This document shows, in pieces, positions 3,158-48,800 of a stretch of 64,000 bases of DNA. The position numbers and the translations under genes are program-made. The DNA comes from a virus. Location of the stretch: positions 1 through 64,000 of IMG/VR virus record IMGVR_UViG_3300049846_002130; one strand, 5' to 3'. A model generated the notes under the pieces. It had not been told where the DNA came from, ran no database searches, and worked only from the letters and a program-made list of their open reading frames with translations. Each line of letters starts with the position of its first letter. The first letter of the stretch is position 1.

Positions 3158-3350
3158 AGTAGCTCCTAGTAGTCTCATCAACAACAGAGCCGTCAGGCAC
3201 TAAGTTAATAAGCTTCTTTAGCTGCCTTCGCGCCCGCTTTCTAACCAAGTGCTTAACTGCTTTAGGATTATCAAACAAATGAATTGTTGGACTATCCATT
3301 AATGTGTAATCTACACCTGGTTTCAGTCCAGCTTTCTTAAAATCATCCAT
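3129..3350 (-). CDS. Hypothetical basic protein
   Basis: Start MDDFKK coupled to upstream TAA (TAATG). Confidence 0.55.
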   Translation of the reverse strand: MDDFKKAGLKPGVDYTLMDSPTIHLFDNPKAVKHLVRKRARRQLKKLINLVPDGSVVDETTRSYYAYYLSSWY

Positions 3351-5924: not shown

Positions 5925-6152
5925 ATGAGACGACAATTTAAAAAGAGTCCGAAGCGTCATCAGCTCGGAGTACATTTGCGCTCCGTCAGGCGCACTATTA
6001 CAACACAGGAACTTGCTGATGCTTACGGGGTTAGCACTCGTACTATCAAGACTTGGTTCTCTACAGGTAAGTTAGTTTTTACTGGTAACCTGTTTGAGGA
6101 CTTAAAGATGTTGGAGACCCTTCGACAGGATCCCCAACACCCTAGTACGTGA
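5925..6152 (+). CDS. Helix-turn-helix DNA-binding protein (excisionase/MerR-like)
   Basis: TTQELADAYGVSTRTIKTWFSTGKL HTH pattern; AGGAG RBS. Confidence 0.8.
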   Translation: MRRQFKKSPKRHQLGVHLRSVRRTITTQELADAYGVSTRTIKTWFSTGKLVFTGNLFEDLKMLETLRQDPQHPST

Positions 6153-6312
6153 TCCTGGTGTAGCCACACTTGGTACACTTGAGACCTTGTGTAAAGCAAC
6201 CAGGTAATGAGCTGTTGATGCAGGCTCCTCGTGGGAGGATACCTTTCATGAGGGCGATATGGCCTGCTGGTACTAAGACCAGTCCAGGTTTCATGTTGTG
6301 TTCACATTGCAT
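6142..6312 (-). CDS. Small Zn-ribbon-like protein
   Basis: MQCEH...CTKCGY; GAGG RBS. Confidence 0.55.
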   Translation of the reverse strand: MQCEHNMKPGLVLVPAGHIALMKGILPRGACINSSLPGCFTQGLKCTKCGYTRITY

Positions 6313-6319
6313 TGTTGCC

Positions 6320-6523
6320 TCACATGTTGGTGTAAGCGGCGTAGGCGAGGCCGCCACAGAGAGTGACCAGCATGGCGATGAACCAGTTGGCCACGATCCA
6401 GTTGGCGGCGCTGAAGTACGGGTCGTTGTCGATGAGGTTGAGTAGCCCTGCGCAGAGCCCGTAGATGTTCATCATCCCCAGGAACACTGCTGGTACTCCG
6501 AAGAGTACGACGATGAAGATCAT
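6320..6523 (-). CDS. Small membrane protein
   Basis: 67 aa, hydrophobic; TGATG coupling to upstream pilin-like ORF. Confidence 0.65.
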   Translation of the reverse strand: MIFIVVLFGVPAVFLGMMNIYGLCAGLLNLIDNDPYFSAANWIVANWFIAMLVTLCGGLAYAAYTNM

Positions 6524-6666
6524 CACAGCACCCCGCTGGCAACACCGATGCAGTAGAGCAGGTACACCAGCACGGCACACCCGATGGCACCAAAGAACAG
6601 GGTGATGCTGACGATCATCAGCTCGATGACACTCACGCCCTGCTCGTCACGAAGGAACTTGATCAT
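6523..6666 (-). CDS. Type IV/Flp prepilin-like peptide (47 aa; not in ORF track)
   Basis: GAGGAG RBS; MIKFLRDEQG|VSVIELMIVSITLFFGAIGCAVLVYLLYCIGVASGVL*: G(-1), E(+5), long hydrophobic helix. Confidence 0.75.
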   Translation of the reverse strand: MIKFLRDEQGVSVIELMIVSITLFFGAIGCAVLVYLLYCIGVASGVL

Positions 6667-6931
6667 GCTCTCTCCTCGGCCAGTGGGCCTCCAGCCACTC
6701 GAACGCAGCTGGAATCTTGTTGTTGTCGTAGAAGCAGTCGTACGGCTTGTCGGAAGTGAAGTTGCGAGCCAAGCTCGGCTGACACAGAGAAGCCAGGTTC
6801 ACCAACGCCTGTCCGTCTCGCCACCCCATGCTCCTGAACCAGTGATGGAATTTGTTGGTCCAGTAGAAGTGTACGAACTCCAGGTAGGAACACCCTACGA
6901 GCTTCCCTGCGATGTCACGTAGGTTCTTCAT
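6647..6931 (-). CDS. Hypothetical protein
   Basis: AGGAG RBS before MKNLRD. Confidence 0.6.
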   Translation of the reverse strand: MKNLRDIAGKLVGCSYLEFVHFYWTNKFHHWFRSMGWRDGQALVNLASLCQPSLARNFTSDKPYDCFYDNNKIPAAFEWLEAHWPRREHDQVPS

Positions 6932-6938
6932 GTTGCTC

Positions 6939-7148
6939 CTAGTCGTGGACACTCAGAACGCCTTGGATGAACGCCCTGGTAGCCAACACCAGATCCTCGG
7001 TATTGGCGTTGAGCTTGATGATCACGCAGTTCACACCGGGCTTGACATCCGGCCAGAGCTGCACTTCTCCTTCTGCTACCACGAGGATTCCCTTGGCTTC
7101 CACCACAGGAGTCTCTGGGACAGGGAGTTCTTGACACACTGGGTTCAT
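6939..7148 (-). CDS. Hypothetical protein
   Basis: 69 aa, AGGAAGG RBS, ATGA overlap. Confidence 0.6.
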   Translation of the reverse strand: MNPVCQELPVPETPVVEAKGILVVAEGEVQLWPDVKPGVNCVIIKLNANTEDLVLATRAFIQGVLSVHD

Positions 7149-7393
7149 GGGCGACCTTCCTGCTTGCGCTTTTCACGAGCGCTCTTGCTACACCACTCCA
7201 TGTCGAGCTTGATCTGCTCGTTGGTACGATTGGTGCTGATGTCGATCATGCAGTAGTCTGGACCACCCAGGTCCTGCATGACGAACGCTTTCTTGCTTGG
7301 GCTGTAGACGGTTGGGCAGCTGTAGTGAATGTAGAGCATACACCCACCACAACAGAGGAGTAACAACACTACGAAGCCAATGTTGTTCTTCAT
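7145..7393 (-). CDS. Exported/membrane-anchored Cys-rich protein
   Basis: MKNNIGFVVLLLLCCGGC signal-like N-terminus. Confidence 0.6.
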   Translation of the reverse strand: MKNNIGFVVLLLLCCGGCMLYIHYSCPTVYSPSKKAFVMQDLGGPDYCMIDISTNRTNEQIKLDMEWCSKSAREKRKQEGRP

Positions 7394-7400
7394 GGCGTCT

Positions 7401-7565
7401 TTAATCTGGGCACACTGCTTTGTAGCAGTGGTCATAGGCGTCAAGGTTGATGTGAGTGCGGACCCCACACCATGAGATGATTACTGTGTTGCTTCTGGGG
7501 TAGAAGGTTATGATGGTCCCAATGTATCGGTCTTTGGGTGTCCACCCTTCGATAGTGAGAATCAT
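7401..7565 (-). CDS. Small protein ending in VCPD (member 5, 54 aa)
   Basis: AGGAGG RBS before MILTIEGW; ends CYKAVCPD*. Confidence 0.65.
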   Translation of the reverse strand: MILTIEGWTPKDRYIGTIITFYPRSNTVIISWCGVRTHINLDAYDHCYKAVCPD

Positions 7566-7573
7566 GTTTCCTC

Positions 7574-7723
7574 CTAGATGTACACGACGTGCTGGGGGCT
7601 GATCATGAACAGCACCTTGGGGTTTGTCCACGAAGCCAGTACAGCCTGGCCTCGAATGATGTGCGTCAGGTAGCCCAATCGATGAGCATGGGCGGGGGCG
7701 CTACCATGGACCTTGATGAGCAT
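7574..7723 (-). CDS. Hypothetical 49-aa protein
   Basis: GAGG RBS; MLIKVHG...PQHVVYI*. Confidence 0.5.
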   Translation of the reverse strand: MLIKVHGSAPAHAHRLGYLTHIIRGQAVLASWTNPKVLFMISPQHVVYI

Positions 7724-7940
7724 TCTGCACCTCGCTGCTTCTGTGTGGGTTTGGAGGCTTTTACCAATGCTTTACAGACCCCCGTGTTTTTTGCAAAACG
7801 TAGAGGTTTGTTGAGCACCAGTATGGGTTTGGGAGTAGGGAGTGTGGGCTTGAACCACCAACAGGTGTGACTATTTGCATTTTGTCACTTTTGTTGTTAG
7901 CCTGGGTAATGCACTACCCGTTCATGCTCCCCGTGAAGAA

Positions 7941-8022
7941 TGCGCCCTCCCGGACTCGAACCGGGACTCCTTTCGGAATTTGATTTTAAATCAAACGCGG
8001 CTACCAATTACGCCAAGGGCAC
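7941..8022 (-). tRNA. tRNA-Leu, anticodon UAA (reads TTA)
   Basis: Acceptor GTGCCCT/AGGGCGC, D-loop AATTGGTA, anticodon arm TTTGA-TTTAAAA-TCAAA, long variable arm, T arm CCCGG-TTCGAGT-CCGGG; CCA not encoded. Confidence 0.93.
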
Positions 8023-8093
8023 AGAGAAAGTTTGCTATTTAGTTATATTTCCTGATATAGTTAGGTTACCAATTTCGACAGAGGAGGAAAATT

Positions 8094-8588
8094 ATGATAG
8101 CCGAAGACTACTACTCAAGACGGGACATGGCGAGGAGATTACTGGGTGGGATTTGTGTGAGGTGTGGGACGGAGCAAGACTTGGAGTTTGATCATATTGA
8201 TCCGATGTTAAAGACTCATAGTGTTAATAAACTACTAGCTTCTGGATCAACAAAGTTGTTGAATGAGCTTGCTAAGTGCCAGCTTCTTTGTAAGGCTTGT
8301 CATTTAGCTAAGACAGTTGCTGAAAAAGAACCCTTTACTCATGGGACCATGTATGGGTGGATGAGACGTAAGTGTGGATGTACTGTTTGCTCAGGGGCGA
8401 AGAGAGCTTGGTATGATCTTCGAAATGAGAAACGTCGAGGACTTGGTACTGTTGTTAAGGGAGCTTATTCTAAAGATCCTGTTCATGGTACTAGTGCTAA
8501 GTATTCTCGTGGTTGTCGTTGCAGTGAATGTCGTGCAGCTAATGCTGATAAAGAACGTAAACGTAAGAAATCTAAGGCGATTATATAG
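8094..8588 (+). CDS. HNH endonuclease with two HGT..C.C..C zinc modules
   Basis: CVRCG..DLEFDHIDP...CQLLCKACHLAKT; AT-rich, opposite strand, next to tRNA. Confidence 0.88.
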   Translation: MIAEDYYSRRDMARRLLGGICVRCGTEQDLEFDHIDPMLKTHSVNKLLASGSTKLLNELAKCQLLCKACHLAKTVAEKEPFTHGTMYGWMRRKCGCTVCSGAKRAWYDLRNEKRRGLGTVVKGAYSKDPVHGTSAKYSRGCRCSECRAANADKERKRKKSKAII

Positions 8589-8617
8589 CCCCTGGCCTTG
8601 GGAACCAGGGGCTATAT
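8583..8617. terminator. Hairpin between convergent genes (probable bidirectional terminator)
   Basis: ATATAGCCCCTGG...CCAGGGGCTATAT 13-bp inverted repeat. Confidence 0.7.
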
Positions 8618-8645
8618 CTCTTATTTGACTTGTTGGCCTGGTTGT

Positions 8646-9110
8646 TTAGACCGGGACCTCGGGATCTGCGTCGGCATCCACCACACCGGCTTCCGTGGTG
8701 GTGGTGGTGGGAACCGTCCCACCCTTGAGCTTCGCGAGCGCCTCGAGCGCTTCCGCGAGCGGCACACCGGCCCCCAACATGGTCTTGAGGTACTCGGGGC
8801 CTGGGTCGACCACCGTGGTGGCTCCGGCCTCCGGAGGCGTCAAGAGCAGATGGAAGTACGACCTCCACACCGTGCTCTCGCTTCCCGGGATGGGTGGGTT
8901 GGAGGCCTTGAAGACCTCCTCGAACTCGTTGACCGGGAAGTTGGCGCCCTTGAGCTTTGCGTAGGCGTCCTTCATGACCTCGAACTTGGCGGCGTCCGTG
9001 GTGGAGGCCAGTAGGTCGCGGGCGATGCCCACGCTGATCTGACCATTCCGACGCGCGGTGACCTCGAACTTGGCTCCGAGGATCTTCTTGACACTGGCAA
9101 CGTTGAACAT
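8646..9110 (-). CDS. Hypothetical protein
   Basis: AAGGAG RBS before MFNVASVKK; GC3-rich codons. Confidence 0.8.
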   Translation of the reverse strand: MFNVASVKKILGAKFEVTARRNGQISVGIARDLLASTTDAAKFEVMKDAYAKLKGANFPVNEFEEVFKASNPPIPGSESTVWRSYFHLLLTPPEAGATTVVDPGPEYLKTMLGAGVPLAEALEALAKLKGGTVPTTTTTEAGVVDADADPEVPV

Positions 9111-9127
9111 GTACTCTCCTTTGGATG

Positions 9128-9397
9128 TTATCCGGAACACTCGGCTGCGTCAGCAGCCGACAGCGCCTCACGCCACTTCACCACTCGCTTTCGCAAATCC
9201 CCAATGAAGAAGCCGGTCACGGCTTGATGTGCCAGCGTCACCGAGCCCTCAGCCAGTAGACCAAGGGCAACGAACAACGCAATGGGAATCACGAAGAACC
9301 AGAAGAAGGTCTCGAGTAGGTCGAGAATTGGGGTGAGCAGGATGATGGTAAGCACCACCGCGGCACTGACCACCACCTGAGTGACAGTCCACCTCAT
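9128..9397 (-). CDS. Membrane protein
   Basis: GGAGG RBS before MRWTVTQ; two hydrophobic helices. Confidence 0.7.
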   Translation of the reverse strand: MRWTVTQVVVSAAVVLTIILLTPILDLLETFFWFFVIPIALFVALGLLAEGSVTLAHQAVTGFFIGDLRKRVVKWREALSAADAAECSG

Positions 9398-9708
9398 GCT
9401 GCCTCCTGCTCGACAAACAGGGCAGCGATTCGCTCCTGGATGTCCACAGCCTCGTTGAGCGTCTGAACGTACAATACGTTCTGGGCTGCGAACGCACTGG
9501 AGAGGGGATGGTGGCTGTTCTTGCTGTCTCGCAGAGCACATGCCCTGCTTAGGGTCGAGGCGAGCTTCTTCCGCAAGCTCTTGAGGCGAGCTGCGTCGTC
9601 ATTGTCTCGCTTCTTCCGAGCTTCTGGGCTTGGGATCTTCTCGAACCGGTCAGGCCACGCTCCATTGGGGTGCGGGGACTTGAACCGGTACCAGGGGGCT
9701 TCTTCCAT
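9394..9708 (-). CDS. Hypothetical protein
   Basis: AAGGAGG RBS. Confidence 0.75.
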   Translation of the reverse strand: MEEAPWYRFKSPHPNGAWPDRFEKIPSPEARKKRDNDDAARLKSLRKKLASTLSRACALRDSKNSHHPLSSAFAAQNVLYVQTLNEAVDIQERIAALFVEQEAA

Positions 9709-9839
9709 ATTACCTCCTTGACAACAGCGCTGTCAGGCGCTTGTTATGGGCTAGACTATAGGAAAGCTATCATTAAGGCTCTGTTAGCTATTACATGCTG
9801 GCTGCAATATGAGCCACCATGCCAAAACCTATAGTCTGC

Positions 9840-10103
9840 CTAGATGCCCATCACCCAGTAGGAGCCGTTCGCTTCACGGGGCATTGCGCGTCCCTGCGCG
9901 GCAAGCTCTTCCCAGATTGCTCTGGCCTTTGCCTGCCTGTCTGCTTCCAACTTCGCTGTGGTGCCGGCAATTCCCTTGACCTTGTCTCGGGATTCGCGCC
10001 CGTTCTGCGAGCCCTTACGGCCCACCATCTTTCGCTGCTCCTTGGTGTAGGAGCGATATGGGACGCCCGCTCCCTCACCCTTGCGTGCCTTTACTCCTGC
10101 CAT
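9840..10103 (-). CDS. Basic hypothetical protein (weak KGG-motif resemblance)
   Basis: AGGAGG RBS before MAGVKARK; SYTKEQRKMVGRKGSQ. Confidence 0.65.
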   Translation of the reverse strand: MAGVKARKGEGAGVPYRSYTKEQRKMVGRKGSQNGRESRDKVKGIAGTTAKLEADRQAKARAIWEELAAQGRAMPREANGSYWVMGI

Positions 10104-10111
10104 GGTACCTC

Positions 10112-10402
10112 CTACTTGCCAGCCATGAGCTTGCACCAGGCTTCACGTCCGAGTCCACCAGGCCTGTGAGTCGGACCCTTGTGGGCCGTGGTGCTCTTGG
10201 CAGCTGGTGCCTGCTGCATCTTTCGCCGAGCCTTGTTGGCCTCGTACTCGGGCTTGGTATACCGAGATGTGGCGAACGGTGTGGGCTTGGGGTCGTACTT
10301 GGTCAACCCCGGGTCACCCCGGAAGACCTTGCGCTTGATGACATGGGGCTTGAGCCCCTTGGCCTCTGCCCTCTTGGCCGGGTTGATGACGCAGCCCATC
10401 AT
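10112..10402 (-). CDS. Basic hypothetical protein
   Basis: AAGGAGG RBS; K/R-rich. Confidence 0.7.
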   Translation of the reverse strand: MMGCVINPAKRAEAKGLKPHVIKRKVFRGDPGLTKYDPKPTPFATSRYTKPEYEANKARRKMQQAPAAKSTTAHKGPTHRPGGLGREAWCKLMAGK

Positions 10403-10707
10403 TCCTCCTTCGTGTGGATGGTGATTCGGGTGTTGTTGGGCCCGAACTTGTAGAACACCGGACTTCCCTTCTCCCAGAAGGGATAGTCTTCTGGCAGGGC
10501 GACAGGTAGGGTGTCGGCCAGGGCCCAGGCAACCAACCTGTTCTTGGTGATGTCACGGAGGGCCACCTCCTTGACGATGTCCCGACGCTCCCGGAATTCC
10601 AGGCCCTGAATGGGAACCTGGTAGGTTCCCAGAATTTTGCCACTGTGGAAGATGCTGATGTCCAGCACATTGGTGGTGTGCTGGTACTTTCCCAGTACGT
10701 AGTACAT
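10399..10707 (-). CDS. Hypothetical protein
   Basis: AAGGAAAG RBS; 102 aa. Confidence 0.7.
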   Translation of the reverse strand: MYYVLGKYQHTTNVLDISIFHSGKILGTYQVPIQGLEFRERRDIVKEVALRDITKNRLVAWALADTLPVALPEDYPFWEKGSPVFYKFGPNNTRITIHTKEE

Positions 10708-10839
10708 GGTCTTTCCTTGTTTGAGTTAGTAGCTTCAGGCTACCTCTGGGTTGGTCGCTCGTCTCCAGTCTTTTGCGCCAGTTCAGGCAGGCGAATAAAG
10801 AGAGGAGGCGGGCGAAGCCCAACCTCCTCAACCGGACCG

Positions 10840-13740
10840 TCAGGTCCGGTTCAGTGACCTTGTCAGTGACGAAAGCCACTGGCTTTCTGCTGACGCCTTG
10901 CGGGTTCTGATGGTGTTGACCACTTCGGAGGTCAACTTGGCCATGCAGTCAGGGCAATCCCAGAGTGGGATTCCTTGATCGTTGGCGTCCTTGATTTCCA
11001 GTTGGTGCTGGCTGCTTTTGGACACAATCCACGTCAGCTTCTGCGTGGGGTCTGGGTCCTTGAGAGCCATGTCGACACATCGTTGGAGTCGTTGCTCCCG
11101 ATGGAGAAACTGACACTCGTAGGTGTGTTCGATTCCCAGAATCTCCATGATGGGAGAGCCTGGGTAGCACACTGCCCGGAATGCATTGTTCAGGTTGGGC
11201 CTGAAGCTTTCGCTTGTCTCAGAGGTCTCGTGCTCCCAGATTTCGACGAGAGCAGTGATGCGCTCGCTTTCCGGAAGCTGAGCAAGGAACAGCTGAAGCT
11301 CTTCTTCGAGCTTCTGCTGTGCCCCAAGTACCTGGTTTGCCCTACGCTCTTCGTTGGCGGAGAGCGATGAGAGCGCATCGTTGTACTTGCCAAGACCACA
11401 CTTGGCTCGAAGGCCTTGTTGGTACTTGGTGTGATTGACAACGATATGTGGTACTACCACGCCCTTTGCTGCCAACACAAGCCTCAACAGTGGGTTGAGG
11501 TCAATGTTGGTCTTGCTCTGGAACTGAGGCTCTTCCTCTTCCCAGAGCTTGAAGCAGTGGCGTGCAGCGATGTGCACGAGGTTCTCATGTTCGCTGACGG
11601 GTGGCAAGAACCACTCATCAACGTTCACTCGTTGACCTCGGCGTCTCCACCACAGAGGGTCCAGGGCCTTCATCTTCCCATCGTCCTGAGCTGCACAGCA
11701 GCCGGCTGCGATGAGTCGACCATCCACCCACTCTTTCAGTCTCTTCATGGGGATCTCTCCCCCTTCGAGCTGATCGGAGGTGTAGCGGATGGTGAAGTGC
11801 CACCCATCTTCACGCTGCTCCCAATTCGTTGGGTCAGCAGCCTTTTCGATGTTGGACCACTCTGGTACTCGCTTCTGACGGTCAATGCACTCCTGAATCG
11901 CGATGCTCAGCGCACGAGCACCGTTCAGGTCACCGACTGCCAGAAGCCGCGACCGCCACACGGTACACCGACCCACTGGGCCACGATGATCGTAGCGCAG
12001 GTACTCCAGGCCCTCTGGAGTATTGGTCATCAACGGACCACCATTCTTGGCAGTCAGTTCCACACCTTTTGGTTCGATGTGGAAGATGTCGTTGTCGTTC
12101 CGGTAGCTGAACAGCTCCAGAATGTCTGGGCTGTCACTGACGCCCAGAATATCTCCGTCATCGTCACCCTGCATCTTGATCGTCAAGTCTGCAGGGTTCA
12201 TGATGATTTGGAATGGAGGCAGCTCATCGTTTACCAGATGATGAGCTTTGGGCTTGATGGTCTTCATGACTACCAGACCCTGAGGCAGAATCATTGGAAA
12301 CCTGAATGCTGCCACCTGCTTGCCGGGTCGCATGCCTGCAACCACACAGTGGCCAGCAGGCACAGTGGCGTCCAGACGAGCAACGTAGCTCCTGAACTTA
12401 CCACCTCCGCCCTGTTCCGTTCTTCCCAGGGTTCTGGCGAGACGGTCCTTGACCGCCTCTGCCACTCTGGGAATGTCCATCGGGGACACTGCGTGGCCCT
12501 CGGAACGAATCACGTTCACGAAGTCCACGATGCCTTTGATGGTGGTGTCACGCCTGGCGATTTGATTCACCAGGCCATCAAGGCCCTTGGCGAACAGTTT
12601 ACCCATGGCCTTGTCGACCATGTTGCGTACGACCTCTGCCGTACGACCGTTCACCTGGATATTCTCCAGCATTTCGAAGCTGCCGGAGATCCGCCGCGGA
12701 CGGTCCCATGCCTGCAGGATGCCGACGTAGCAGCCTCCCACAGCCTTGACCCTGTTGTCGGCCCGACGCTGCTTTGCCTCGGGCTTCCAGCGGCCCTTGA
12801 TTTGCGTCCAGTCGAGTACGATGCCCTCGACCTTGTCGGACGGGAAGATCGTGCCCTTGGCGAATAGCCCACTCTCGGGCTGCAAGAGCCGGAACTGGCA
12901 GGGCACAGCTCCGTACTTGGCTACGAATGCAGCCATCTCAGGACAGGTTGGGTTGTAGATGCCCGACCCGTCTGTTTTCAAGTCCACACCCTCCGCGTCA
13001 CGCAGAGTGGTGAACGTGACATTGGCGTTCTCGATGAAGCCCTCGGGGAGCACCGGGGCATTGAGGCCATGACAGTACGCAGACATGTCGATGGCCTTCG
13101 GGAATGCCTTGAGCAACAACTTGTAGGCTGGGTGGTCCATGTTCCAGCCCAGACGCTCACCGGAGACAGCGATGTGGAGGCTGTTCAGCTCCGCAAGGCC
13201 GCCCTTGAAGGTTTCGCGCCCCTCTTCGTCCTCTCGCTTGTCGATGGTCGACAAGATGTTCATCGCTACGGCAGAGGACTGCTGACCGTGCAGAACCCCG
13301 CTGATGAGAGCAAGGAGCCCAAAGCTCCGCAGCTCTCGATCGTAGCGCCACCGACACCGCTCCTCGTTGAGTCGGTAGAAGGTGTACACTGGCTCACGGA
13401 TGTACGTGAGCCGATTTGCTGTCCGCTTCTCGAAGCGCACCAGGCGCTCTTGAAGCCTCTTGATGTCTTTGGTGGCCAAGGTCTCGTATGCCAAGGTCAC
13501 CAAGTCTTCGGCAAATACTTCGGCCAGCTCACTGAATCCCATGGACGTGAACACATCCACGAGGTCCTCGATCTTGGTCAGGGGCTTCGTTTGCACCCTG
13601 GCCACGTAGTCGCCCAGCATGTCGCCGGGCAACTCCTCCTCCGTCCCCCGAGGCTCGTCGAGAGTGATGGAGTTCAGAAACTCCAGAACCCTCCGCTCCT
13701 CGTTGCGGATCTCGAAGTTCTCAACACTGAGGTTGTTCAT
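10840..13740 (-). CDS. Single-subunit two-barrel RNA polymerase, YonO/QDE-1 (cellular RdRP)-like; probable non-virion RNAP, 966 aa
   Basis: Ordered motifs TDGSG, QFR..AKG, WTQIKG, RFP, catalytic GDDDGD (12151-12168), VG helix, QECIDRQK; start MNNLSV at 13740 after AGGAGG. Confidence 0.88.
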   Translation of the reverse strand: MNNLSVENFEIRNEERRVLEFLNSITLDEPRGTEEELPGDMLGDYVARVQTKPLTKIEDLVDVFTSMGFSELAEVFAEDLVTLAYETLATKDIKRLQERLVRFEKRTANRLTYIREPVYTFYRLNEERCRWRYDRELRSFGLLALISGVLHGQQSSAVAMNILSTIDKREDEEGRETFKGGLAELNSLHIAVSGERLGWNMDHPAYKLLLKAFPKAIDMSAYCHGLNAPVLPEGFIENANVTFTTLRDAEGVDLKTDGSGIYNPTCPEMAAFVAKYGAVPCQFRLLQPESGLFAKGTIFPSDKVEGIVLDWTQIKGRWKPEAKQRRADNRVKAVGGCYVGILQAWDRPRRISGSFEMLENIQVNGRTAEVVRNMVDKAMGKLFAKGLDGLVNQIARRDTTIKGIVDFVNVIRSEGHAVSPMDIPRVAEAVKDRLARTLGRTEQGGGGKFRSYVARLDATVPAGHCVVAGMRPGKQVAAFRFPMILPQGLVVMKTIKPKAHHLVNDELPPFQIIMNPADLTIKMQGDDDGDILGVSDSPDILELFSYRNDNDIFHIEPKGVELTAKNGGPLMTNTPEGLEYLRYDHRGPVGRCTVWRSRLLAVGDLNGARALSIAIQECIDRQKRVPEWSNIEKAADPTNWEQREDGWHFTIRYTSDQLEGGEIPMKRLKEWVDGRLIAAGCCAAQDDGKMKALDPLWWRRRGQRVNVDEWFLPPVSEHENLVHIAARHCFKLWEEEEPQFQSKTNIDLNPLLRLVLAAKGVVVPHIVVNHTKYQQGLRAKCGLGKYNDALSSLSANEERRANQVLGAQQKLEEELQLFLAQLPESERITALVEIWEHETSETSESFRPNLNNAFRAVCYPGSPIMEILGIEHTYECQFLHREQRLQRCVDMALKDPDPTQKLTWIVSKSSQHQLEIKDANDQGIPLWDCPDCMAKLTSEVVNTIRTRKASAESQWLSSLTRSLNRT

Positions 13741-13859
13741 GGACCTCCTAAAGCTTAGCATTGGCTGCGTCAGCAGCCATAAAAAAGGGAAGGCCACAAT
13801 AGGGCCTTCCGGATTCAAGACAGAACCTTGATGGTCTATCCTATCACTAACTTTCTTTC

Positions 13860-14252
13860 TTAGCCGTCGATGCCGATGGCCCACCGGAGCTTAGCCCCCT
13901 GGAGGTAAGCCCCACGGAGGTTGGCCCCCTGGAGATTGGCCCCCCAAAGGTCAGCCTCCCGAAGGTCAGCCCACCGGAGGTCAGCCCCCTGGAGGTCAGC
14001 CCCCTGGAGGTCAGCCTCCTGGAGGTAAACCCACTGGAGGTCAGCCCCCCAGAGGTCAGCCTCCCGGAGGTTAGCCCCCCGGAGGTCAGCCCACTGGAGG
14101 TCAGCCCCCCGGAGGTCAGCCCGCCGGAGGTCAGCCCTCTGGGGCACGACACTCTCTTCAACAGCATGGGCTTCGAAGCCCTGGCTTCGAAGCCAAGCTT
14201 GGTGAGGCCCGTACCAAGGGAAGCGGGCCATGAGCTCAGTGTGGTTGGTCAT
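13860..14252 (-). CDS. Pentapeptide repeat protein, paralogue 3 (130 aa)
   Basis: GGAGG RBS before MTNHTELMARFPWYGPHQAWLRSQGFEA; A(D/N)L(R/Q)x repeats. Confidence 0.92.
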   Translation of the reverse strand: MTNHTELMARFPWYGPHQAWLRSQGFEAHAVEESVVPQRADLRRADLRGADLQWADLRGANLREADLWGADLQWVYLQEADLQGADLQGADLRWADLREADLWGANLQGANLRGAYLQGAKLRWAIGIDG

Positions 14253-14316
14253 CTTGCCTCCGGAGCGCTTGCTCTGGGTCGCTCCAAAACAAAGGGGGCC
14301 GTCAGGCCCCCGCGCA

Positions 14317-14493
14317 TCAGAACTCAAACTCATCGGGAAATGTTTCTTCCACATCTCCCAAGTACACCAGACAAAGAATATTCTCTGTCAGATATGCAAT
14401 GCGGAGGGCTTCCGCATTGTCGGCCATGAGTCCCAGCTCGAAGGCAGCATCTGCTACCTCGAACCAGAACTCCACCTCATCATGAAGAGCCAT
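14317..14493 (-). CDS. Small very acidic protein (58 aa)
   Basis: AAGGAGG RBS before MALHDEVE; 15 D/E vs 1 R. Confidence 0.7.
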   Translation of the reverse strand: MALHDEVEFWFEVADAAFELGLMADNAEALRIAYLTENILCLVYLGDVEETFPDEFEF

Positions 14494-14684
14494 GGTTCCT
14501 CCTTTGGCTTTAAAAGGGTGGGAGCCTTCTGTGCTCAAGTCTTGAGTCTCTGCGGAGTGAGCCTGCCTGAAGGTGGTTTGCGGAGTCGTGGTATCCCTTG
14601 GGTCTTTACCACTTAAGTCTTCCAATCACAAATTAAAGGTTCAATAAAAGAAGGGCAGTTTATACTCTTGCCCAGGAGTCTATG

Positions 14685-15065
14685 CTAGTTGTTGTGCACC
14701 ACGAGCTTGATGACCCACGGAAGCAGGTTAAGCTCGTTGCCATCGATGGTGAAGGAGTTGTAGCAGGACTCCTCCAGCTTCTGCTTGCACCTCTCCAGCA
14801 GGAACTCGTAGGTATTCCGATCGTCGTAGCGGTACGGCCAGATGGCGTACATCGGATTGCTGTGCCGAGGCTTCCACTCCTCGTAGGTCAGGATGTGACG
14901 GTAGTACGTCGTGACCTTGATGGTCTCGTCCTCGATCTCGATCTGAACGTCCTGTCCAGGTCCACTCCTGCTACGATCCTTCAGGTAGCCATGGAAGGTG
15001 GTGGTCCCGCTGGTCTCCCAGATGAAGGCCCCCACCACGAACTCCACCCACTGCGCGTACGTCAT
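14685..15065 (-). CDS. Hypothetical protein
   Basis: AAGGAG RBS before MTYAQW. Confidence 0.75.
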   Translation of the reverse strand: MTYAQWVEFVVGAFIWETSGTTTFHGYLKDRSRSGPGQDVQIEIEDETIKVTTYYRHILTYEEWKPRHSNPMYAIWPYRYDDRNTYEFLLERCKQKLEESCYNSFTIDGNELNLLPWVIKLVVHNN

Positions 15066-15135
15066 TGTCTCTCCTTGTTGGTCACCATGACCATAAAAGA
15101 AGGGGTAGTTTATCCACATACCCCAGGTGGTTGGA

Positions 15136-15387
15136 CTAGAACGGGATGTCGTCGTCGTTCAGGCTGTCCACGAACATACGGATTTCCTCGGCCTCCTGTG
15201 CGGTCATCGGCTGTTCGTTCCTGCTCTTCCACTCCTGGTCCACACACCAGTCCTCGTACAGGCGCTGGTAGTGCTGAGCCTTCTGGTGAAGATCCAGATG
15301 CTGCTCCATCGGAACACTCTTGTCGAACGAAGCGTCGAACATCTGCCACCAGAAGTCAGCCAGGTCACGCGGATTCAGCTCACGCAT
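15136..15387 (-). CDS. Small helical protein with SSB-like C-terminal DDDIPF
   Basis: 83 aa ending LNDDDIPF*; GGGAG RBS. Confidence 0.75.
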   Translation of the reverse strand: MRELNPRDLADFWWQMFDASFDKSVPMEQHLDLHQKAQHYQRLYEDWCVDQEWKSRNEQPMTAQEAEEIRMFVDSLNDDDIPF

Positions 15388-15471
15388 TGTAGCTCCCTAT
15401 AGTGCTGTGTGCACCATAAAAGAAAGGGGAATACCTAGGTATTGGACCTAGTGCTATTCCCTACCAGCTAA

Positions 15472-16011
15472 TCAGTCGATACGACGCAGGTGCAGGTGGT
15501 CGTTCCGGAAGAACGCCTCCCACTTGATGGACCTGCGGCCCAAGGCCACGCTCCTGAGCTTGGCCAAGAACTCCTGACACTCCCCCCTATGGGAGATGTA
15601 GAAGCTCTTGTCGAACCACACGGCGAACTCCTCACGTTCCCGGGTCTGAGTGTGGTTGTTGCACTTGAGGTGCTCCCAGAGGGGATTGATGGGCTTGATG
15701 CCCAGCATGTCCAGCAACATGTTCACGTCGCAGTCGTACTCGGGTTCGACCTCCTCACCCGGGAGCTTGGGCATGCCCGACTCCAGGTCCGTGGTCTCGT
15801 TGGTGGACTTGGGCTTCTGGTAGAACGCCAGGGCCTCCTTGCACTGCTCCAGATCCTGGGTGATGCACTCCACCTTCTCCTGGAGCTTGGGCAGGAACGC
15901 CATGATGTCGTGCTCCATCTTCTCCTTGGTCACCCCCTGGTAGTCGATGGCCTTGCTCTCCACGATGGACGCAAGGACGTTGATGATCGCCAGGGTGTCG
16001 TTCTTGGTCAT
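15472..16011 (-). CDS. Hypothetical protein
   Basis: AAGGAG RBS, 179 aa, coiled-coil-like N-half. Confidence 0.75.
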   Translation of the reverse strand: MTKNDTLAIINVLASIVESKAIDYQGVTKEKMEHDIMAFLPKLQEKVECITQDLEQCKEALAFYQKPKSTNETTDLESGMPKLPGEEVEPEYDCDVNMLLDMLGIKPINPLWEHLKCNNHTQTREREEFAVWFDKSFYISHRGECQEFLAKLRSVALGRRSIKWEAFFRNDHLHLRRID

Positions 16012-16124
16012 GCTCTCTCCTTAGACCTATCGGGTCTTTGTTTTGGCTCTCACCTTATTGTGAGGCCATAAAAAGGAAAGAGAAAGAAAAGGGTAGGGGT
16101 TGGACCTACCAATTTCTTCCGGCT

Positions 16125-16340
16125 TTAGCGGTATCCCATGTAGTAGCAGATCCGCACCATGGCCTCCTCTGGGCCGACGAGCCGGAGGAGCACCCTCCAT
16201 GCTTCATCGGCCTCCCTCTCGGCCTCGGCGTATTCAGCGATCCACTCGGGATCGTCGCACGATACCGAGGGCCACGGGGCCCTGTTCTGGTCCGCCACGA
16301 GACGGGCCAAACGCGAAACCTCACTGCCGATGGTCTTCAT
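16125..16340 (-). CDS. Hypothetical protein
   Basis: AAGGAG RBS. Confidence 0.7.
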   Translation of the reverse strand: MKTIGSEVSRLARLVADQNRAPWPSVSCDDPEWIAEYAEAEREADEAWRVLLRLVGPEEAMVRICYYMGYR

Positions 16341-16401
16341 GTTCTCTCCTTTATGGCAGGTAGTTCTGCCGTAAAAGAAAAAGGGGCCAGGCCCCCGTCT
16401 C

Positions 16402-16542
16402 TCAGGTTTTGATCATGTTGTCCATGATCATCAACAACAGCCCATAGAGGGCTGCCAGTGCGCTCAGGAACAACGTTCCCATGTCGGGTGCATTGGTGAT
16501 GACGGCCAGTGAGACGATCGTACAAATGAACCCGATACGCAT
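16402..16542 (-). CDS. Small membrane protein (46 aa)
   Basis: GGAGG RBS; MRIGFICTIVSLAVITNAP...LYGLLLMIMDNMIKT*. Confidence 0.6.
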   Translation of the reverse strand: MRIGFICTIVSLAVITNAPDMGTLFLSALAALYGLLLMIMDNMIKT

Positions 16543-16642
16543 GTTGCCTCCAATCTTTGGTCTTGCTTCGTTGCCAGACCATAAAAGAGAGAAAAGAAAA
16601 GGGGACTACTCAGGTATTGGACCTGATGCTAATCCCTTCGCA

Positions 16643-16894
16643 CTAGTTCTCGTCCGGCAGCTCGATCTCGCCCGGGAACTCCTGGGCCCAGGCGGCCCAG
16701 CTCGTGTACGTCTCGTTGCCTTCCTCGTCCACCTCCGGATACCCGGTGAGGATAAGCAGGAATCCTCCCTCCCGTCCGATGATCGGGCCCGCCGGGTACT
16801 GCTCCTCTCCGATCAACACCTCCCCATCGCCCTCGGGCAGCCGGCTCGCGATCCGAGGGGAGAATGCCGACGGGGCGATGATCATCTTGAACAT
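16643..16894 (-). CDS. Acidic hypothetical protein
   Basis: AAGGAG RBS; E/D-rich C-half. Confidence 0.7.
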   Translation of the reverse strand: MFKMIIAPSAFSPRIASRLPEGDGEVLIGEEQYPAGPIIGREGGFLLILTGYPEVDEEGNETYTSWAAWAQEFPGEIELPDEN

Positions 16895-16979
16895 GTCTTC
16901 TCCTTAATGCCTTAGGGAAGTTATCTAAGGCCATAAAAGAAAGGGGTAGTTATACTCCACCCCCAGGAGTCAGACTTGA

Positions 16980-17435
16980 CTAGCTTTCGAGGCTAGCCAA
17001 GTCTCCCTGCCAGAAGAACAAGCTGGCGAGCCCGTCCTCCTCCACCTCCCGCTCGTTGTTCAGCTCATCGCAGAGCTGGTCGAGTGCGAGGGTTTCCTCG
17101 ACGATCTGGGCTGCCTTATCCATCTCGGACCAGAAGACCACCATGGCCCCATGGAGAGCGTTGATGCTAAACGCATGCTCCTCGCACACCTCCACTTCGA
17201 AGGCCGGGTCAATCTGGTCGAACCAGATCTCGGTCATGAGTTCCTCGCCCCAGAACACCATGTCCTCGGGGATCTCGAATACGTGGACCAGGTCAGCCTG
17301 CTCCTCCTCGTGGTACACGATCTGGACGCTCTCGGCACAGACCGGGTGGAGAGCGATGATGTCCTCGAAGGTCACGATGGCCCCGACGACGATGACGACG
17401 AGGAGGAACAACGACACCAGGGTGATGGCGAGCAT
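16980..17435 (-). CDS. Membrane-anchored extremely acidic protein (151 aa)
   Basis: GGAG RBS before MLAITL; N-terminal TM helix; about 33 D/E vs 2 K/R. Confidence 0.7.
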   Translation of the reverse strand: MLAITLVSLFLLVVIVVGAIVTFEDIIALHPVCAESVQIVYHEEEQADLVHVFEIPEDMVFWGEELMTEIWFDQIDPAFEVEVCEEHAFSINALHGAMVVFWSEMDKAAQIVEETLALDQLCDELNNEREVEEDGLASLFFWQGDLASLES

Positions 17436-17469
17436 GTTAGCTCCAAGCCTACTAGGTGTAGGCTGTTGT

Positions 17470-18149
17470 TGGTTGGTAGACTTAGAAACTAAGTCTGGTA
17501 GGTGGACTGGGACCACCACGGCCTAAGGTTCTGTGATTGTCCTTTTAGACCTTAAGGTCTGCCCATGGATATCGGGTTTGGCTAGTGGGTTGGTCTTACT
17601 GTCATGCCACGAGTATAGCCAGACTCGTTTGCACCAGATCCAGGTGCTTGGTTGACTTACTCAGTAAGTCAGAGGGTGTGTGTTATCCGCGTACACCAAG
17701 CGGGATGGTATGTTGTACTACAAGCACATGCTGGTAGTAGTGTAGGTCCCCACCTAGGTACCGTTCCCTATAGGGTGATGTCCCCTATGGTAGGTAGTAC
17801 CATGCCTAGGCTACTTGTCGTAGTGCCAACGCTAGGTGCCCCTAGAAGTCCTATGTCTCTTTACCGCATAGGAGATCGGTTGTTTCCATGGCGCATATAC
17901 CTAGTACGTATAGTGTACCCATCGTGGGCACCTATACGGGCTACTAGGTAGGCTACCTGGGGGATGTACCCCTTGCCTTCGTGTGGTGGACTCCACACTA
18001 GTATGCTGCCCAGCATACACCCGTATACACCCGCAGGCGTATACTTCTGCTACACGGTTAATACTTGCTTAAGCAAGTATTAACCTACTACATATCCAGT
18101 GATTGCTCTTCCCAGGTATGTAGGGACATGGTCATATCGCTATGACCAT
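17470..18149 (-). ncRNA. Candidate structured ncRNA or long 5' leader (tandem hairpin array)
   Basis: More than 15 consecutive stem-loops, no RBS-supported ORF, starts at a cassette copy; two stems pair via G-U only on the - strand. Confidence 0.5.
18056..18085. repeat. Perfect 30-bp palindrome
   Basis: GGTTAATACTTGCTT|AAGCAAGTATTAACC. Confidence 0.95.
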
Positions 18150-18178
18150 AAAAGAAAAGGGGGCCGAAGCCCCGATCA

Positions 18179-18277
18179 TCAGGCGATGCGCCCGATGATC
18201 AACCCAATACCGAATCCCACCATCGTCATGGCAATGATGGCAATGCAAGAAGCACACATAAGGATGATGATGCCCAT
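18179..18277 (-). CDS. 32-aa hydrophobic peptide
   Basis: GGAGG RBS directly after cassette; MGIIILMCASCIAIIAMTMVGFGIGLIIGRIA*. Confidence 0.55.
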   Translation of the reverse strand: MGIIILMCASCIAIIAMTMVGFGIGLIIGRIA

Positions 18278-18338
18278 GTTAACCTCCGTAAAAGAAAAGG
18301 GGGCTATATCTCCTATGGATATAGCCCACTAGTAGGTG

Positions 18339-18488
18339 TTAGTAGTCCTTGATAAGACTACCGAGCACCCACTCCTCGCCATCGATACCCTCGTTATTGA
18401 GAGCATGGAGATAGCGCACGAACATCCTCGTACACACGCTTCCCTTACGGTAGGCGTTAACGAGAACGAACAGAGCGGTGGTACGCAT
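18339..18488 (-). CDS. 49-aa hypothetical protein (first leftward gene)
   Basis: GGAGG RBS before MRTTALF. Confidence 0.55.
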   Translation of the reverse strand: MRTTALFVLVNAYRKGSVCTRMFVRYLHALNNEGIDGEEWVLGSLIKDY

Positions 18489-18745
18489 GGTACCTCCAAG
18501 ACATGTAGATGCTGAATGCATCATACAGAGGTCATAAAAAGAAAGAATAAAATAAAAAGAGGGGTCAATACTTTAGGCCGGTGGGCTCCGAACTCCGGAT
18601 TGGATAACCATGATATATCTACCTGGTCCACAAAATTATATATATAATATATTACATAATCCATAGCCACATATTGCTTATATCTATACCAACTACACCG
18701 ATGCTCCAGCTTAATCTGCACTATCTTCTACTTGCACTTGCACTA

Positions 18746-18754: not shown

Positions 18755-18769
18755 TTTTACGGAGACTGC

Positions 18770-45885: not shown

Positions 45886-48800
45886 ATGTTCGAACCATAT
45901 GGCTCGATGGTTTGGAGTAATCAGCCTACTCAGCCCTCTGAAAATCGTCCTAATCGGTATCTAAATTTAGGCTTAGCATCTGTTGCTATGGGTGGTGCTT
46001 TTGCTTATGGCTTACACTCACGTCCTGACGATACTCGGCCGATAGATGCTCTTATTAGTGTAGCTAGGAATGTAGGCAATCTTACACCTTATCAGATTGG
46101 GAATACTTTTCGTGTTCCTGAGTTCTTAAGTCCCTTTGCTTCTCCTAAGTATCACAGACTTACTGCAAAGGGTGGGCAGTATACTCATACTTGGGATGCT
46201 GCTAGTCTATCTAATTCTAGTACCTATAGTTACCTTAAAGAATTAACTGGACTATCTGATAGCCAATTACATTCTTTTGGTATAGGTTCTAGATCATCTA
46301 AAGCTAATTTAGTATTCAAGAAAGATGCTACTGCTGTTCATGGACAGCTATATAGTGTCTTAAACGGTAAGGAGAGCCTGCTTCGTTCCAATGTTATGCT
46401 TATGCAGTATACTGGTGAGCGGAATGAAGTTCTAACATCACTAGGTAAGGCTCCTGAGTTTACTCCTGTTAATAAAGCGATCAAGTCTGTTTTTGCTGCT
46501 ATGGATATGTGGCGGTATAAGGACTTTAAAGAAGGCAATGTCTTGCTTTCTGGGAAGAACAGACCGTCGTTAATACCTGTGCCTGGTATTGAAGCCAGTT
46601 ATTCTGGCACAACATATCTTAGGTCTATTGGTGCTTTTCAAATGGAGAGGTTTAACCATCTACTGGGTAATATTGGTGGTGAACTATTTGGCTCTTCACT
46701 TGATAAAGTTTTTAAGCGGATACTGGGTACGGGAGTTGGAGTGGCTTCTGGGCCAGCTTCGAGTATGTTCTTTCGATTTGGTGGTAAGGCTGCTCTAGCT
46801 GGAGCAATAGGTATTGGAGCAGTAGCAGAGACAGATTGGATTAGGCGTAGGTTTGGAACTCCGGGACATATGATTGCAAGCACAGCAATTGCTGGTGGGC
46901 TTGGAGTGTTAGCTACTAGGGCTGGGTTTAAAGGTAAGACTGGGGCATTAATCGCTGGGGGAGCTTTTATTGGCCAAATGCTTTTACCTGGGTTTAATAA
47001 AGGTGTCGTGCCAGGACTTGCTACGTCGTATACTAATCTTCAGCTAGCAAGAGCCAGTAGCTTAAATCCCTTTAATTATTATCGTAGAACGGTAGAGGGT
47101 TTCTTACCCGGTATTAGTGGATTTGGTGTAGCAGCTGGTATTGGTATTGCTATGGCGACAGCTCCACATCTAAAGATTCCTGGTACAGGCAGACGAGTGC
47201 CTCAAATTCTTTTAGATCAACTTGGTCGCACTACTCTTGGGTTTAAACCAAAGACTCTCAGTGGTCTTTCTGTTGAAGTCCCCAAAACAGTACGTGATAT
47301 TTTTTGGGACAAAATGATGTCTCATGGTCTTCAAGAACTAAATGGTCCTAAGTTTGCAAAGATATATCAGCAGTATGCTGCTAATGGCCACTACTCTACC
47401 ATGAGTATGAGAAATAGGTTAATGAGAGAATTCTATACTCAACGACCAGTTGAAGAAACGAGTCGAGCTATGGAGCATCTCTTTGCTGCTGCAGAAACAG
47501 AGTATGACGAGTTAGCAAAAAGAAATCCGATTAATCACCATATGGTTGATGAGCTAACAGCTATTGCTACTAGATATTCTGGTAAAGGTGACTTTATATC
47601 TCGTGCCACAATGCAGGCAGAGGGTTTGGTTAGCCAGCTTAAGCATAGCTTTTTTGGAGCTGTACTTCACGAAGAAAGTACAGCTAAAGCCATGGCTTCC
47701 CTTGGGTTCAAATCTCCTCTTGGCTCTTTCGGATTATTGTTTGCAGCTGGAGCAACTGCCTTTGGTATAGCAAGTGGTGGTCTCTTGGGTTCAATGCGAA
47801 CAAAAGAAGAGCTTGAAGATATTTATTCTGGCAGACAACTTGTTGAAGTTAAGAAGGGTAGATTTTGGGAAGCGGGTGGTACCCCGTGGGAAGGTGGACT
47901 AACTTCTCAGTTAAGGCCTCATTGGTATCCAATAATGATGTCTCGGGCTCAACAAGCCGGAACATGGGGATCTGATGAAGACAATCTAGATCCTATTAGC
48001 AAGTGGGCTCTTTCTAATTTTACATATGAGCTAGAAAGAAGAAACTATTATGATCGACCCTATCCCATTAGTGGGGCAGCTTTTGCTAATGTTCCTATCA
48101 TTGGAGGACTATTAAGTTCTACGATTGGACGATTAATTAAGCCTCCAAAGATTATGCATGCTAATGAGTGGGCTCGTATGGGGGCTGGGGGTGCAGAGTA
48201 TGCTTCTTTGTATGAGGGTTGGAAGCGTGAACCATCATATGCAATGGGCGCATCTATGCCTGGTATACCTATAAGTCCATATAGTGCAGCACATGCTTTG
48301 AGTCAAGTTAACTATCAGGCTCAAGAGTTAGCAGGTTTGACTGGGTGGGTTGGCTCTCTAATTCAGGAGGGTTTAACCGGTAAACCATATTGGCATGGGG
48401 ACTCACCTGTCTTGGCAGATGCTTCGATACTCTCTAGTGCCAGAAGGACATTATGGGATGCACAGTTGGGCGGTATGGGTCCTTTAGGTGAAATAATTCG
48501 ACGGGTTCTTCCAAGCTATCCAAAAGATGTTGAGAGAACCAATCCCCTACTAAACACGATGCCCAGCTGGCTACCAGATCAATTTGCATATGGTGACCCA
48601 TATGCGCAGATCCCATATGGAGAGGCTGTTTTACCAGGACCTGGTTATGCAGCTTTACATCCAGAACTTAGAGGCGTAAGCCCAGAAGATTATCCCTTGT
48701 TACACAGATATAATATTCTGTCGCAGGTATCACCTTTAAGTAAAGAATTTAGAAGTACAAAAGATAAGGTCTATCGAGCACGAGCTGCTGGTTTATTAAC

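Follow-up and report, generated by a model that had tools for sequence, protein, structure and literature searches.

The promoters of a tail-associated two-barrel virion RNA polymerase (RNAP) have so far been mapped in only one group of Thermus phages. In phage P23-45 the virion RNAP is the N-terminal part of the tape-measure protein gp96 and transcribes a pre-early block, including the non-virion RNAP gene gp64, from AT-rich promoters, as described from chromatin immunoprecipitation sequencing (ChIP-seq) and Oxford Nanopore (ONT)-cappable-seq (Chaban et al. 2024, PMC10770324). For 14 of its start sites, the upstream 30 nt end in TTATTCYTTTA, and its termination sites are marked by hairpins 6-40 nt upstream of starts, as for the termination site TTS1 at 340 and the start site TSS2 at 346, where the T tract of the hairpin runs into the promoter (PMC10770324 and its supplementary tables). 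We describe here a repeated element in the first 64,000 nucleotides (64 kb, hereafter the window) of IMG/VR record IMGVR_UViG_3300049846_002130, a single 183,528-base contig that is the genome of an uncultured phage from freshwater metagenomes. The element, a cassette of a hairpin, a pyrimidine tract ending in TTTTA(T/C)GG and in most copies a second hairpin, precedes a series of leftward genes that ends with the gene of a predicted non-virion two-barrel RNAP. These cassettes are probably composite terminator/promoter units of a pre-early block that is read by an injected two-barrel RNAP, as a variant of the P23-45 arrangement. The genome also encodes a large terminase, a tail sheath and a giant tape-measure-like protein, and a near-identity DNA search gave no match among public phage records. 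Among listed sequencing runs the stretch was present in three DNA runs, all of freshwater metagenomes, and in no RNA run.

Other known systems share some of these features. The virion RNAP of coliphage N4 is T7-like and recognises as its promoter a hairpin, with a conserved stem of 5-7 bp and a loop of 3 nt, that lies ahead of the start. N4 and the window phage are alike in that an injected polymerase, putative here, reads the first genes from unusual hairpin-associated promoters; the window hairpins, however, vary in stem, loop and distance and a strong abutting one is absent in 26 of the 84 motif copies identified in ten phages, while it is the linear tract that is conserved. Both polymerase candidates described below are DxDGD proteins and no T7-like RNAP was seen. 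The Escherichia coli ompA and T7 phi10 leaders carry 5'-terminal stem-loops that stabilise the mRNA and, like the units described here, place a stem within a few nucleotides of the 5' end ahead of a Shine-Dalgarno (SD)-led start. Those are single genes, whereas the window stems recur in most units of the block and across related phages. The promoter-early stem-loops (PeSLs) of T4-like phages (Arbiol et al. 2010, PMC2839356; Comeau et al. 2014, PMC4122927) resemble the cassettes as small terminator/promoter composites that flank many short, variable early open reading frames (ORFs), fall into sequence subfamilies and are possible recombination points. PeSL promoters are host sigma-70 early promoters, whereas the cassettes have no -35/-10 pair, and the putative window promoter, unlike that of a PeSL, measures about 14 nt and overlaps the tail of the terminator.

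The cassette motif and its likeness to P23-45 promoters

The exact word CTTTTAYGG occurred nine times in the window against 1.16 expected, a count reached in none of 100 shuffles. Seven of the nine matches were on the minus strand between 15.1 and 18.3 kb, and across the genome the same interval held seven of the eight minus-strand matches. Ten strong copies of (C/T-tract)CTTTTA(T/C)GG were located, all on the minus strand between 13.7 and 18.6 kb. A weight matrix was built from these copies aligned on the A of A(T/C)G(G/A), the putative +1, which runs from 18535 down to 13780 and is given for each cassette below. The ten copies scored 18-29 bits while the next best site on either strand of the 183,528 bases reached 13.9; the matrix, being trained on its own ten sites, indicates that nothing else in the genome is alike and is not an independent discovery. 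Information content was 0.7-1.5 bits per position in the T/C tract (about -12 to -1) and 1.5, 1.0, 2.0 and 1.6 bits at +1, +2, +3 and +4. Cassette families (D3, D4, D5, D7 and D8), with subfamilies sharing hairpin sequence, were retrieved independently by a repeat finder.

A sequence-only reading of the window had listed about 13 copies in front of most early genes, with variants before rightward genes. Ten of these are the strong copies, and the remaining three are degenerate (14645, 10795 and 14287, at 7.4, 7.6 and 2.7 bits, respectively). The rightward variants were not recovered, as the site at 5469 scored 3.3 bits, that at 18759 scored 0 bits with only TTTTTACGG kept, and nothing was recognisable at 5925 (-12 bits). 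The statement about early genes holds for 12 genes, beginning at 18488 and ending with the polymerase gene at 10840, each of which has one intergenic element. It does not hold for the approximately 14 leftward genes from 10707 to 6142, which overlap or lie 0-17 nt apart without cassettes except for two longer gaps of 131 nt (9839-9709) and 922 nt (8645-7724), both also without a cassette.

Most elements were predicted to fold as a hairpin, an unpaired pyrimidine tract and a second hairpin, in agreement with the anatomy first proposed, and 11 of the 13 listed elements folded better than dinucleotide shuffles (z -1.8 to -5.4). The exceptions to this fold were cassette 2, in which the second stem is missing, and cassette 1, in which the abutting first hairpin is missing. 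A GC-rich stem-loop followed at once by a T run, as in an intrinsic terminator, was present in 11 of the 13 elements, and eight of the ten strong copies had an abutting hairpin of -10 kcal/mol or better. Terminators were scanned genome-wide under a stricter rule; a lenient version gave 744 hits, far too many.

The sequence-only reading had pointed to an AT-rich motif upstream of P23-45 early genes, which proved correct, and the mapped TTATTCYTTTA promoters became the key comparison. In both phages a pyrimidine-rich motif ends in TTTA at the start site, which is predicted here (TTATTCYTTTA in P23-45 and CTTTTCTTTTA in the window), and continues with TG(G). Both have a hairpin immediately upstream whose T tract runs into the promoter (putative here), one unit per short gene, a block that includes the non-virion two-barrel RNAP gene, no occurrence of the motif elsewhere in the genome, and a pair of highly dissimilar DxDGD proteins, of which one is encoded in the tail module. 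The P23-45 variant TTATTCTTTTATGG differs from the window consensus CTTTTCTTTTATGG at 2 of 14 positions, and the 3' part TTCTTTTATGG is identical in several P23-45 promoters. In the P23-45 genome TG(G) follows the motif, and the annotated start codons of gp77, gp75 and gp73 begin with the final A of the motif, so that transcription starts there and the mRNAs are leaderless. The two phages differ at this point, as the ATGG of the window does not code, stands 12-58 nt ahead of an SD-led start and is predicted to pair in a 5' stem. The virion RNAP of P23-45 is fused to the tape measure, whereas the candidate here is a separate 1668-aa protein beside the tape-measure-like gene, and the P23-45 promoters were mapped experimentally whereas the window motif is known from sequence alone. 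P23-45 is a Thermus siphovirus, while the phage that carries the cassettes is a contractile-tailed freshwater phage of 183 kb.

That the tract is a phage-RNAP promoter and +1 overlapping a terminator and giving stem-protected 5' ends had already been proposed, and the proposal is supported by comparative evidence, namely the autonomy of the motif, its strand, its restriction to the block, the conservation of the non-coding positions +1 to +4, the onset of the stem at these positions and the likeness to P23-45. We infer the start site, the polymerase used, termination and the role of the 5' stem as follows. The GC-rich hairpin and T-rich tail would end the upstream transcript, and the 3' part of the pyrimidine tract together with A(T/C)GG, roughly YTCTTTTA(T/C)GG, would form a compact promoter with transcription starting at the conserved A. 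The reader would be an RNAP present before any phage gene is expressed, for which the likeliest candidate is a putative virion-packaged two-barrel RNAP of 1668 aa. Each pre-early gene would then give a monocistronic mRNA with a 5'-terminal stem-loop from +1 to +4 and a 3' terminator hairpin, both ends being paired. The last unit would drive the non-virion RNAP gene, and that enzyme would take over the downstream cassette-free genes.

Evidence beyond a terminator tail

The A(T/C)GG is conserved though non-coding, as genes start 12-58 nt downstream behind strong GGAG-type SD sequences. Use of ATGG as the start codon of small ORFs was considered and rejected, since the frames either end after 4-10 codons or extend through the following cassette, and ACGG takes the place of ATGG in two copies. 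Cassettes 5 and 7 have a second tract, with ATGG, placed about 10-15 nt beyond the hairpin and its T tract, so that terminator and motif functions are separable and lie side by side. About one third of the motif copies, the 26 of 84 mentioned above, nine of them in locus L005, have no strong abutting upstream hairpin, which argues that the motif is autonomous and not just a terminator tail.

These observations bear on the possibility that the elements are ordinary intrinsic terminators only, their tail and second stem being left by recent duplication of a cassette with its small gene and the whole block being read through from one upstream promoter. The GC-rich stems and T tracts of 11 of the 13 elements would be explained in this way, and the hairpin subfamilies D3, D4 and D8 do suggest duplication. 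Terminators after every gene of one operon would, however, leave the distal genes unexpressed, including the polymerase gene. The ATGG/ACGG is conserved while the flanking stems differ, about a third of the copies lack an abutting hairpin, and the motif family is still found in phages whose RNAPs are only 26-39% identical, a distance at which duplicated DNA would have diverged long ago. We regard terminators alone as an unlikely explanation.

The relatives on which this comparison draws carry polymerase homologues of 26-60% identity, their contigs being 147-194 kb long, and share a layout of terminase, SNase-domain protein and divergent early region. Across ten related loci (designated L001 onwards), reaching 4-12 kb beyond the polymerase gene, a strand-specific motif family was found (TTTTATGG, TTTTAATGG, TTTCTATGG and TTTACGG). 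In the relatives every copy was on the same strand as the polymerase gene and upstream of it, and the opposite strand gave 0-1 hits. Plain word counts gave motif variants as the commonest 9-mers in eight of nine IMG/VR loci (TTTTTAATGGCA, TCTTTTATGGC, TTTCTATGG and TTTCTTTAC/TTTTTACGG); in the ninth, L011, the commonest 9-mer was a hairpin word. Two complete relative genomes had seven exact matches each, of which five and six, respectively, were within a 3-5-kb stretch just upstream of the polymerase gene. A mere terminator tail or a recent duplication is insufficient to explain these data.

In locus L006, hairpin-less copies at about 990-1030, 1405-1445 and 3180-3220 were each preceded by the same element of about 32 nt, ATTGACYCGATCGAAAAAAGCAAYATGTTCTC, which makes tandem units behind a first cassette. 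The word GACTGGAG was considered as a second repeated promoter word and dropped, as only one relevant copy exists in the genome of the window phage.

The second stem had been described as beginning at the ATGG/ACGG, and this was confirmed by prediction in nine of the ten strong copies, where the predicted leader opens with a hairpin that has its first base pair at +1 to +4; in the remaining copy the leader is only 12 nt long. Stem sequences vary while the structure is kept, as had also been noted, and the 3' arms end in CCAT or CCA and are thus complementary to the conserved ATGG. When a perfect stem of at least 5 bp starting at +1 to +4 was required, 30 of the 84 copies passed against 7.4% of random positions (p about 1e-13), and when the frame was slid 1-11 of the 84 passed. 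This strict rule replaced an earlier loose one that was uninformative, 42% of random positions having passed it. The stem was strong in the window phage, L006, L009 and L014. It may be a 5'-terminal protective stem that also hides the non-coding 5' AUG.

An unpaired U-rich tract between two hairpins could instead be an endonuclease processing site at which an RNase E-like or phage nuclease cuts a polycistronic pre-early RNA. The anatomy fits known processing sites, in which an unpaired AU-rich segment lies between stems, intergenic processing occurs in the early RNA of T7, and after cleavage each new end would carry a stem. The first copy of the block, however, has no gene upstream from which it could be cut, and the conservation of AYGG in distant phages suggests a reader specific to the phage, not a host RNase of loose specificity. 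The like motif in P23-45 also marks cap-able, primary 5' ends (PMC10770324). Processing is accordingly given a low probability.

Polymerases that may read the cassettes

The gene behind cassette 12 (10840-13740, minus strand) encodes 966 aa from an SD-backed ATG, or 973 aa in another call. The motif QGDDDGD was invariant in 16 homologues, and an AlphaFold (AF2) model of the protein had a predicted local distance difference test (pLDDT) score of 86.7. Foldseek matched this model to QDE-1 (1e-12), the P23-45-group proteins gp64 and gp62 (8f72 and 8f5m, 3e-10 and 1.5e-9), gp96 (1e-5) and phi14:2 gp66 (2.5e-4). Judged from the model, the protein is a two-barrel RNAP of double-psi beta-barrel fold with a DxDGD metal loop. 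The cassettes end at this gene, with no strong copy downstream, and as the gene is behind its own cassette, the enzyme that reads the cassettes must pre-exist it.

The candidate for that enzyme is encoded in the tail module at 49895-54901 (plus strand), between genes for proteins of 1339 and 2786 aa. The 1668-aa product carries GDFDGD, and D1248, D1250, D1252, K641 and P1137 were invariant in 41 homologues of down to 18% identity, with K648 and R1135 nearly so. The motif order K641..K648, R1135-x-P1137 and D1248-x-D1250-G-D1252 presumably corresponds to that of bacterial beta (K..KG) followed by beta' (RxP..L, DxDGD), with two barrels in one chain. The family consists of about 130 sequence clusters, and a homologue was present in four of the five IMG/VR records that carry the non-virion RNAP.

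The three giant ORFs of the tail module (1339, 1668 and 2786 aa) are arranged head to tail at 45886-63261 (plus strand), and the 1668-aa and 2786-aa ORFs share a single base, the last of the former and the first of the latter. The 2786-aa protein had metallopeptidase and lysozyme-type hits typical of tape-measure proteins.

Several results weigh against the reading of the cassettes as promoters of an injected two-barrel RNAP. For the 1668-aa protein, a model of residues 800-1668 was poor (pLDDT 54) and Foldseek gave nothing below E = 0.1 against the PDB; a wider structure search returned only helical-bundle matches and weak RNAP rows (Z 4.6-5.8). Profile searches against PDB sequences with 9 and 41 homologues, Pfam and ESM Atlas features, and hhalign comparison of the family with the non-virion RNAP family and with the N-terminal 1200 aa of P23-45 gp96 gave nothing significant. 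The top hhalign segment paired a ..QEH..IKGKK helix of the 1668-aa family with an ..IQE.ID.AKR helix of the non-virion RNAP at a probability of only 0.25%. As to the motif, a T tract after a GC hairpin is found in any intrinsic terminator, which explains part of it without a promoter, and other bases follow the T tract in L001 and L003 (AGGAGAGA and AGAGAAG). The 5' stem was weak or absent in L002, L005, L013, L015 and L017. A matrix of the P23-45 promoters placed only three window sites in its top 10, because the A that is invariant at -8 in P23-45 is absent from the window copies, and the likeness to P23-45 may be convergent.

The motif may also be an unusual promoter type of the host, and more generally a promoter read by another enzyme, either the host RNAP with an unfamiliar sigma factor or promoter type or the non-virion RNAP amplifying its own block. 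T7-type phages use the host RNAP for the genes that precede their polymerase gene, and the structure and profile searches gave no RNAP match for the candidate virion enzyme. The cassettes, however, share no -35/-10-like pair, and sigma-70-like sites were not enriched in the region (9 against 8.9 expected), none of them being common to the cassettes. Several leaders are too short (12-30 nt), with a variable hairpin occupying the upstream 35 nt. If the non-virion RNAP were the reader, its promoter would be expected downstream of its gene and elsewhere, whereas no other site exceeded 13.9 bits and the gene itself is behind a cassette. Both variants of this explanation are, on balance, unlikely, and the 1668-aa protein remains the preferred candidate reader.

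A more far-reaching suggestion, which we consider rather improbable, is that Y-tract-TTTA(+1)-TGG is an ancient specificity shared by tail-associated virion two-barrel RNAPs from Thermus siphoviruses to mesophilic freshwater jumbo myoviruses, the enzymes having diverged beyond recognition. If so, the initial AUGG would be part of the polymerase requirement, serving as a leaderless start codon in P23-45 and buried in a stem here, and the 5' stem may help a clamp-less enzyme to release RNA while DNA is still entering the cell.

If the cassettes are promoters of an injected RNAP, the strategy would extend from Thermus phages to a large, uncultured family of freshwater jumbo phages and would thus be widespread, with the approximately 130 clusters as candidate enzymes, and the cassette would be a ready-made promoter for a never-assayed enzyme. 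Promoter and coding requirements would be separated, since the ATG after the motif codes in P23-45 and is non-coding yet conserved here. The unit of about 50-70 nt, with terminator, promoter and 5' stem, would be a useful insulated expression part if the polymerase is active.

Individual cassettes and neighbouring features

All elements are on the minus strand and are described in the direction of transcription. Apart from cassette 3 and cassette 12, the latter in front of the 966-aa polymerase gene, each strong copy precedes one short GC-rich gene. Cassette 1 (18492-18565, +1 A at 18535) heads the block in an AT-rich divergent region, where a long T/C tract ends in TTTTTATGA; it has ATGA for ATGG, no abutting upstream hairpin and a downstream stem from +4 (z -3.3, 18-20 bits), and precedes the first leftward gene (18488-18339). 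Cassette 2 (18278-18327, +1 A at 18289) consists of a 10-bp hairpin and CCTTTTCTTTTACGG before the gene 18277-18179, and its 12-nt leader leaves no room for a second stem because it holds the SD (ACGGAGG). Cassette 3 (18128-18173, +1 A at 18149) has a GGGGC-UUCG-GCCCC hairpin, CTTTTCTTTTATGG and a perfect 9-10-bp stem from +1 (27-32 bits, z -4.5).

Directly downstream of cassette 3 are approximately 700 nt (17440-18140, minus strand) that are packed with hairpins and without a credible ORF, for which Rfam gave no match at E <= 1. If cassette 3 is a promoter, this region would be a long structured transcript or leader.

Cassette 4 (16909-16964, +1 A at 16934) has a hairpin, CCCCTTTCTTTTATGG and a 7-bp stem from +4 before the gene 16894-16643. 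In cassette 5 (16558-16638, +1 A at 16582) a long hairpin and T tract are followed by a separate CTCTCTTTTATGG and a stem from +2, ahead of the gene 16542-16402 (repeat family D8, z -3.0). Cassette 6 (16355-16396, +1 A at 16372) combines a GGGGGCC..GGCCCC hairpin, TTTTTCTTTTACGG and a 5-bp stem from +3 before the gene 16340-16125, while cassette 7 (16044-16110, +1 A at 16069) has a hairpin, a T/C tract and then CCTTTTTATGG with a stem from +2, preceding the gene 16011-15472 (z -3.2). Cassette 8 (15399-15463, +1 A at 15417) features a long hairpin that is 82% like that of cassette 5 (D8), again CCCCTTTCTTTTATGG, and a 7-9-bp stem from +1 before the gene 15387-15136 (z -3.9). Cassette 9 (15079-15124, +1 A at 15094) has a D4 hairpin, CCCCTTCTTTTATGG and a 6-bp stem from +2 before the gene 15065-14685. 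Cassette 12 (13762-13810, +1 A at 13780), in front of the polymerase gene, has an 8-bp hairpin, CCCTTTTTTATGG and a 7-bp stem from +2 (z -5.4).

Two degenerate copies lie between cassettes 9 and 12. The first (14640-14675) has a D4-family hairpin and CCCTTCTTTTATTG, with ATTG for ATGG and no second stem (7.4 bits, z -0.4), and is followed by a 191-nt leader with two ACTCCGCA words and the gene 14493-14317. The second (14262-14311) has a strong 7-bp GC hairpin and CTTTGTTTTGGAGCG without A(T/C)GG (2.7 bits), then a GGAGCG..CGCTCC stem and the gene 14252-13860. Directly after the polymerase gene, the closing element (10790-10829) is a strong hairpin followed by TCTCTTTATTCGCC in which the motif is weak (7.6 bits), and looks like a terminator at the end of the cassette-bearing block. 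In the leader after the polymerase gene, GACTGGAGAC is common to the window (10761-10770, minus strand) and the 60%-identity relative L001 (about 5150).

The word ACTCCGCW was found in pairs on the polymerase strand, in the relatives for the most part within the long leader that immediately precedes the non-virion RNAP gene (L002 9853/9943, L012 and L014 9520/9547, L013 9458/9494, with L007 9904, L010 9790 and L011 9668). In the window it is located two genes upstream of the polymerase gene, at 14551-14558 and 14579-14586 (minus strand). Possible roles are those of an operator, an RNA-binding site or a promoter of a second class.

The gene 13860-14252 (minus strand), among the pre-early genes just upstream of the polymerase gene, encodes a 130-aa pentapeptide-repeat protein (Pfam PF00805, E 2e-36) with 14 copies of a 15-nt DNA repeat. 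The other pre-early products had no match in the Pfam search.

The leftward block of about 6.1-18.5 kb, in which 26 leftward genes were called from G+C content at third codon positions (GC3) and SD support, has 55-60% G+C against a genome average of about 38%. The same G+C of 55-60%, with GC3 of 0.7-0.9, was seen at 6100-18500 and also at 1-1040 of the window and 177529-178000 of the genome. Corresponding blocks of relatives were likewise richer in G+C than their flanks, including L002 (0.55-0.62 against 0.45-0.49), L005 (0.50-0.67 against 0.40) and L007 (0.53-0.61 against 0.41-0.48). The 922-nt gap mentioned above includes a tRNA-Leu gene (anticodon TAA) at 7940-8023 (minus strand), inside the leftward early operon, and an adjoining opposite-strand ORF of 164 aa (8094-8588, plus strand) that has a low GC3 of 0.32 and breaks the GC-rich block.

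A genome-wide signal of a hairpin followed by TTTATG was also considered and dropped, as the sites at 108464, 123126 and 165015 were start codons preceded by SD-hairpin arrangements, a feature of another kind. At these minus-strand sites, outside the window, the ATG lies about 10 nt after a strong hairpin with GGAGG-like bases directly before it, and the hairpin may bring a distant SD beside the start codon.

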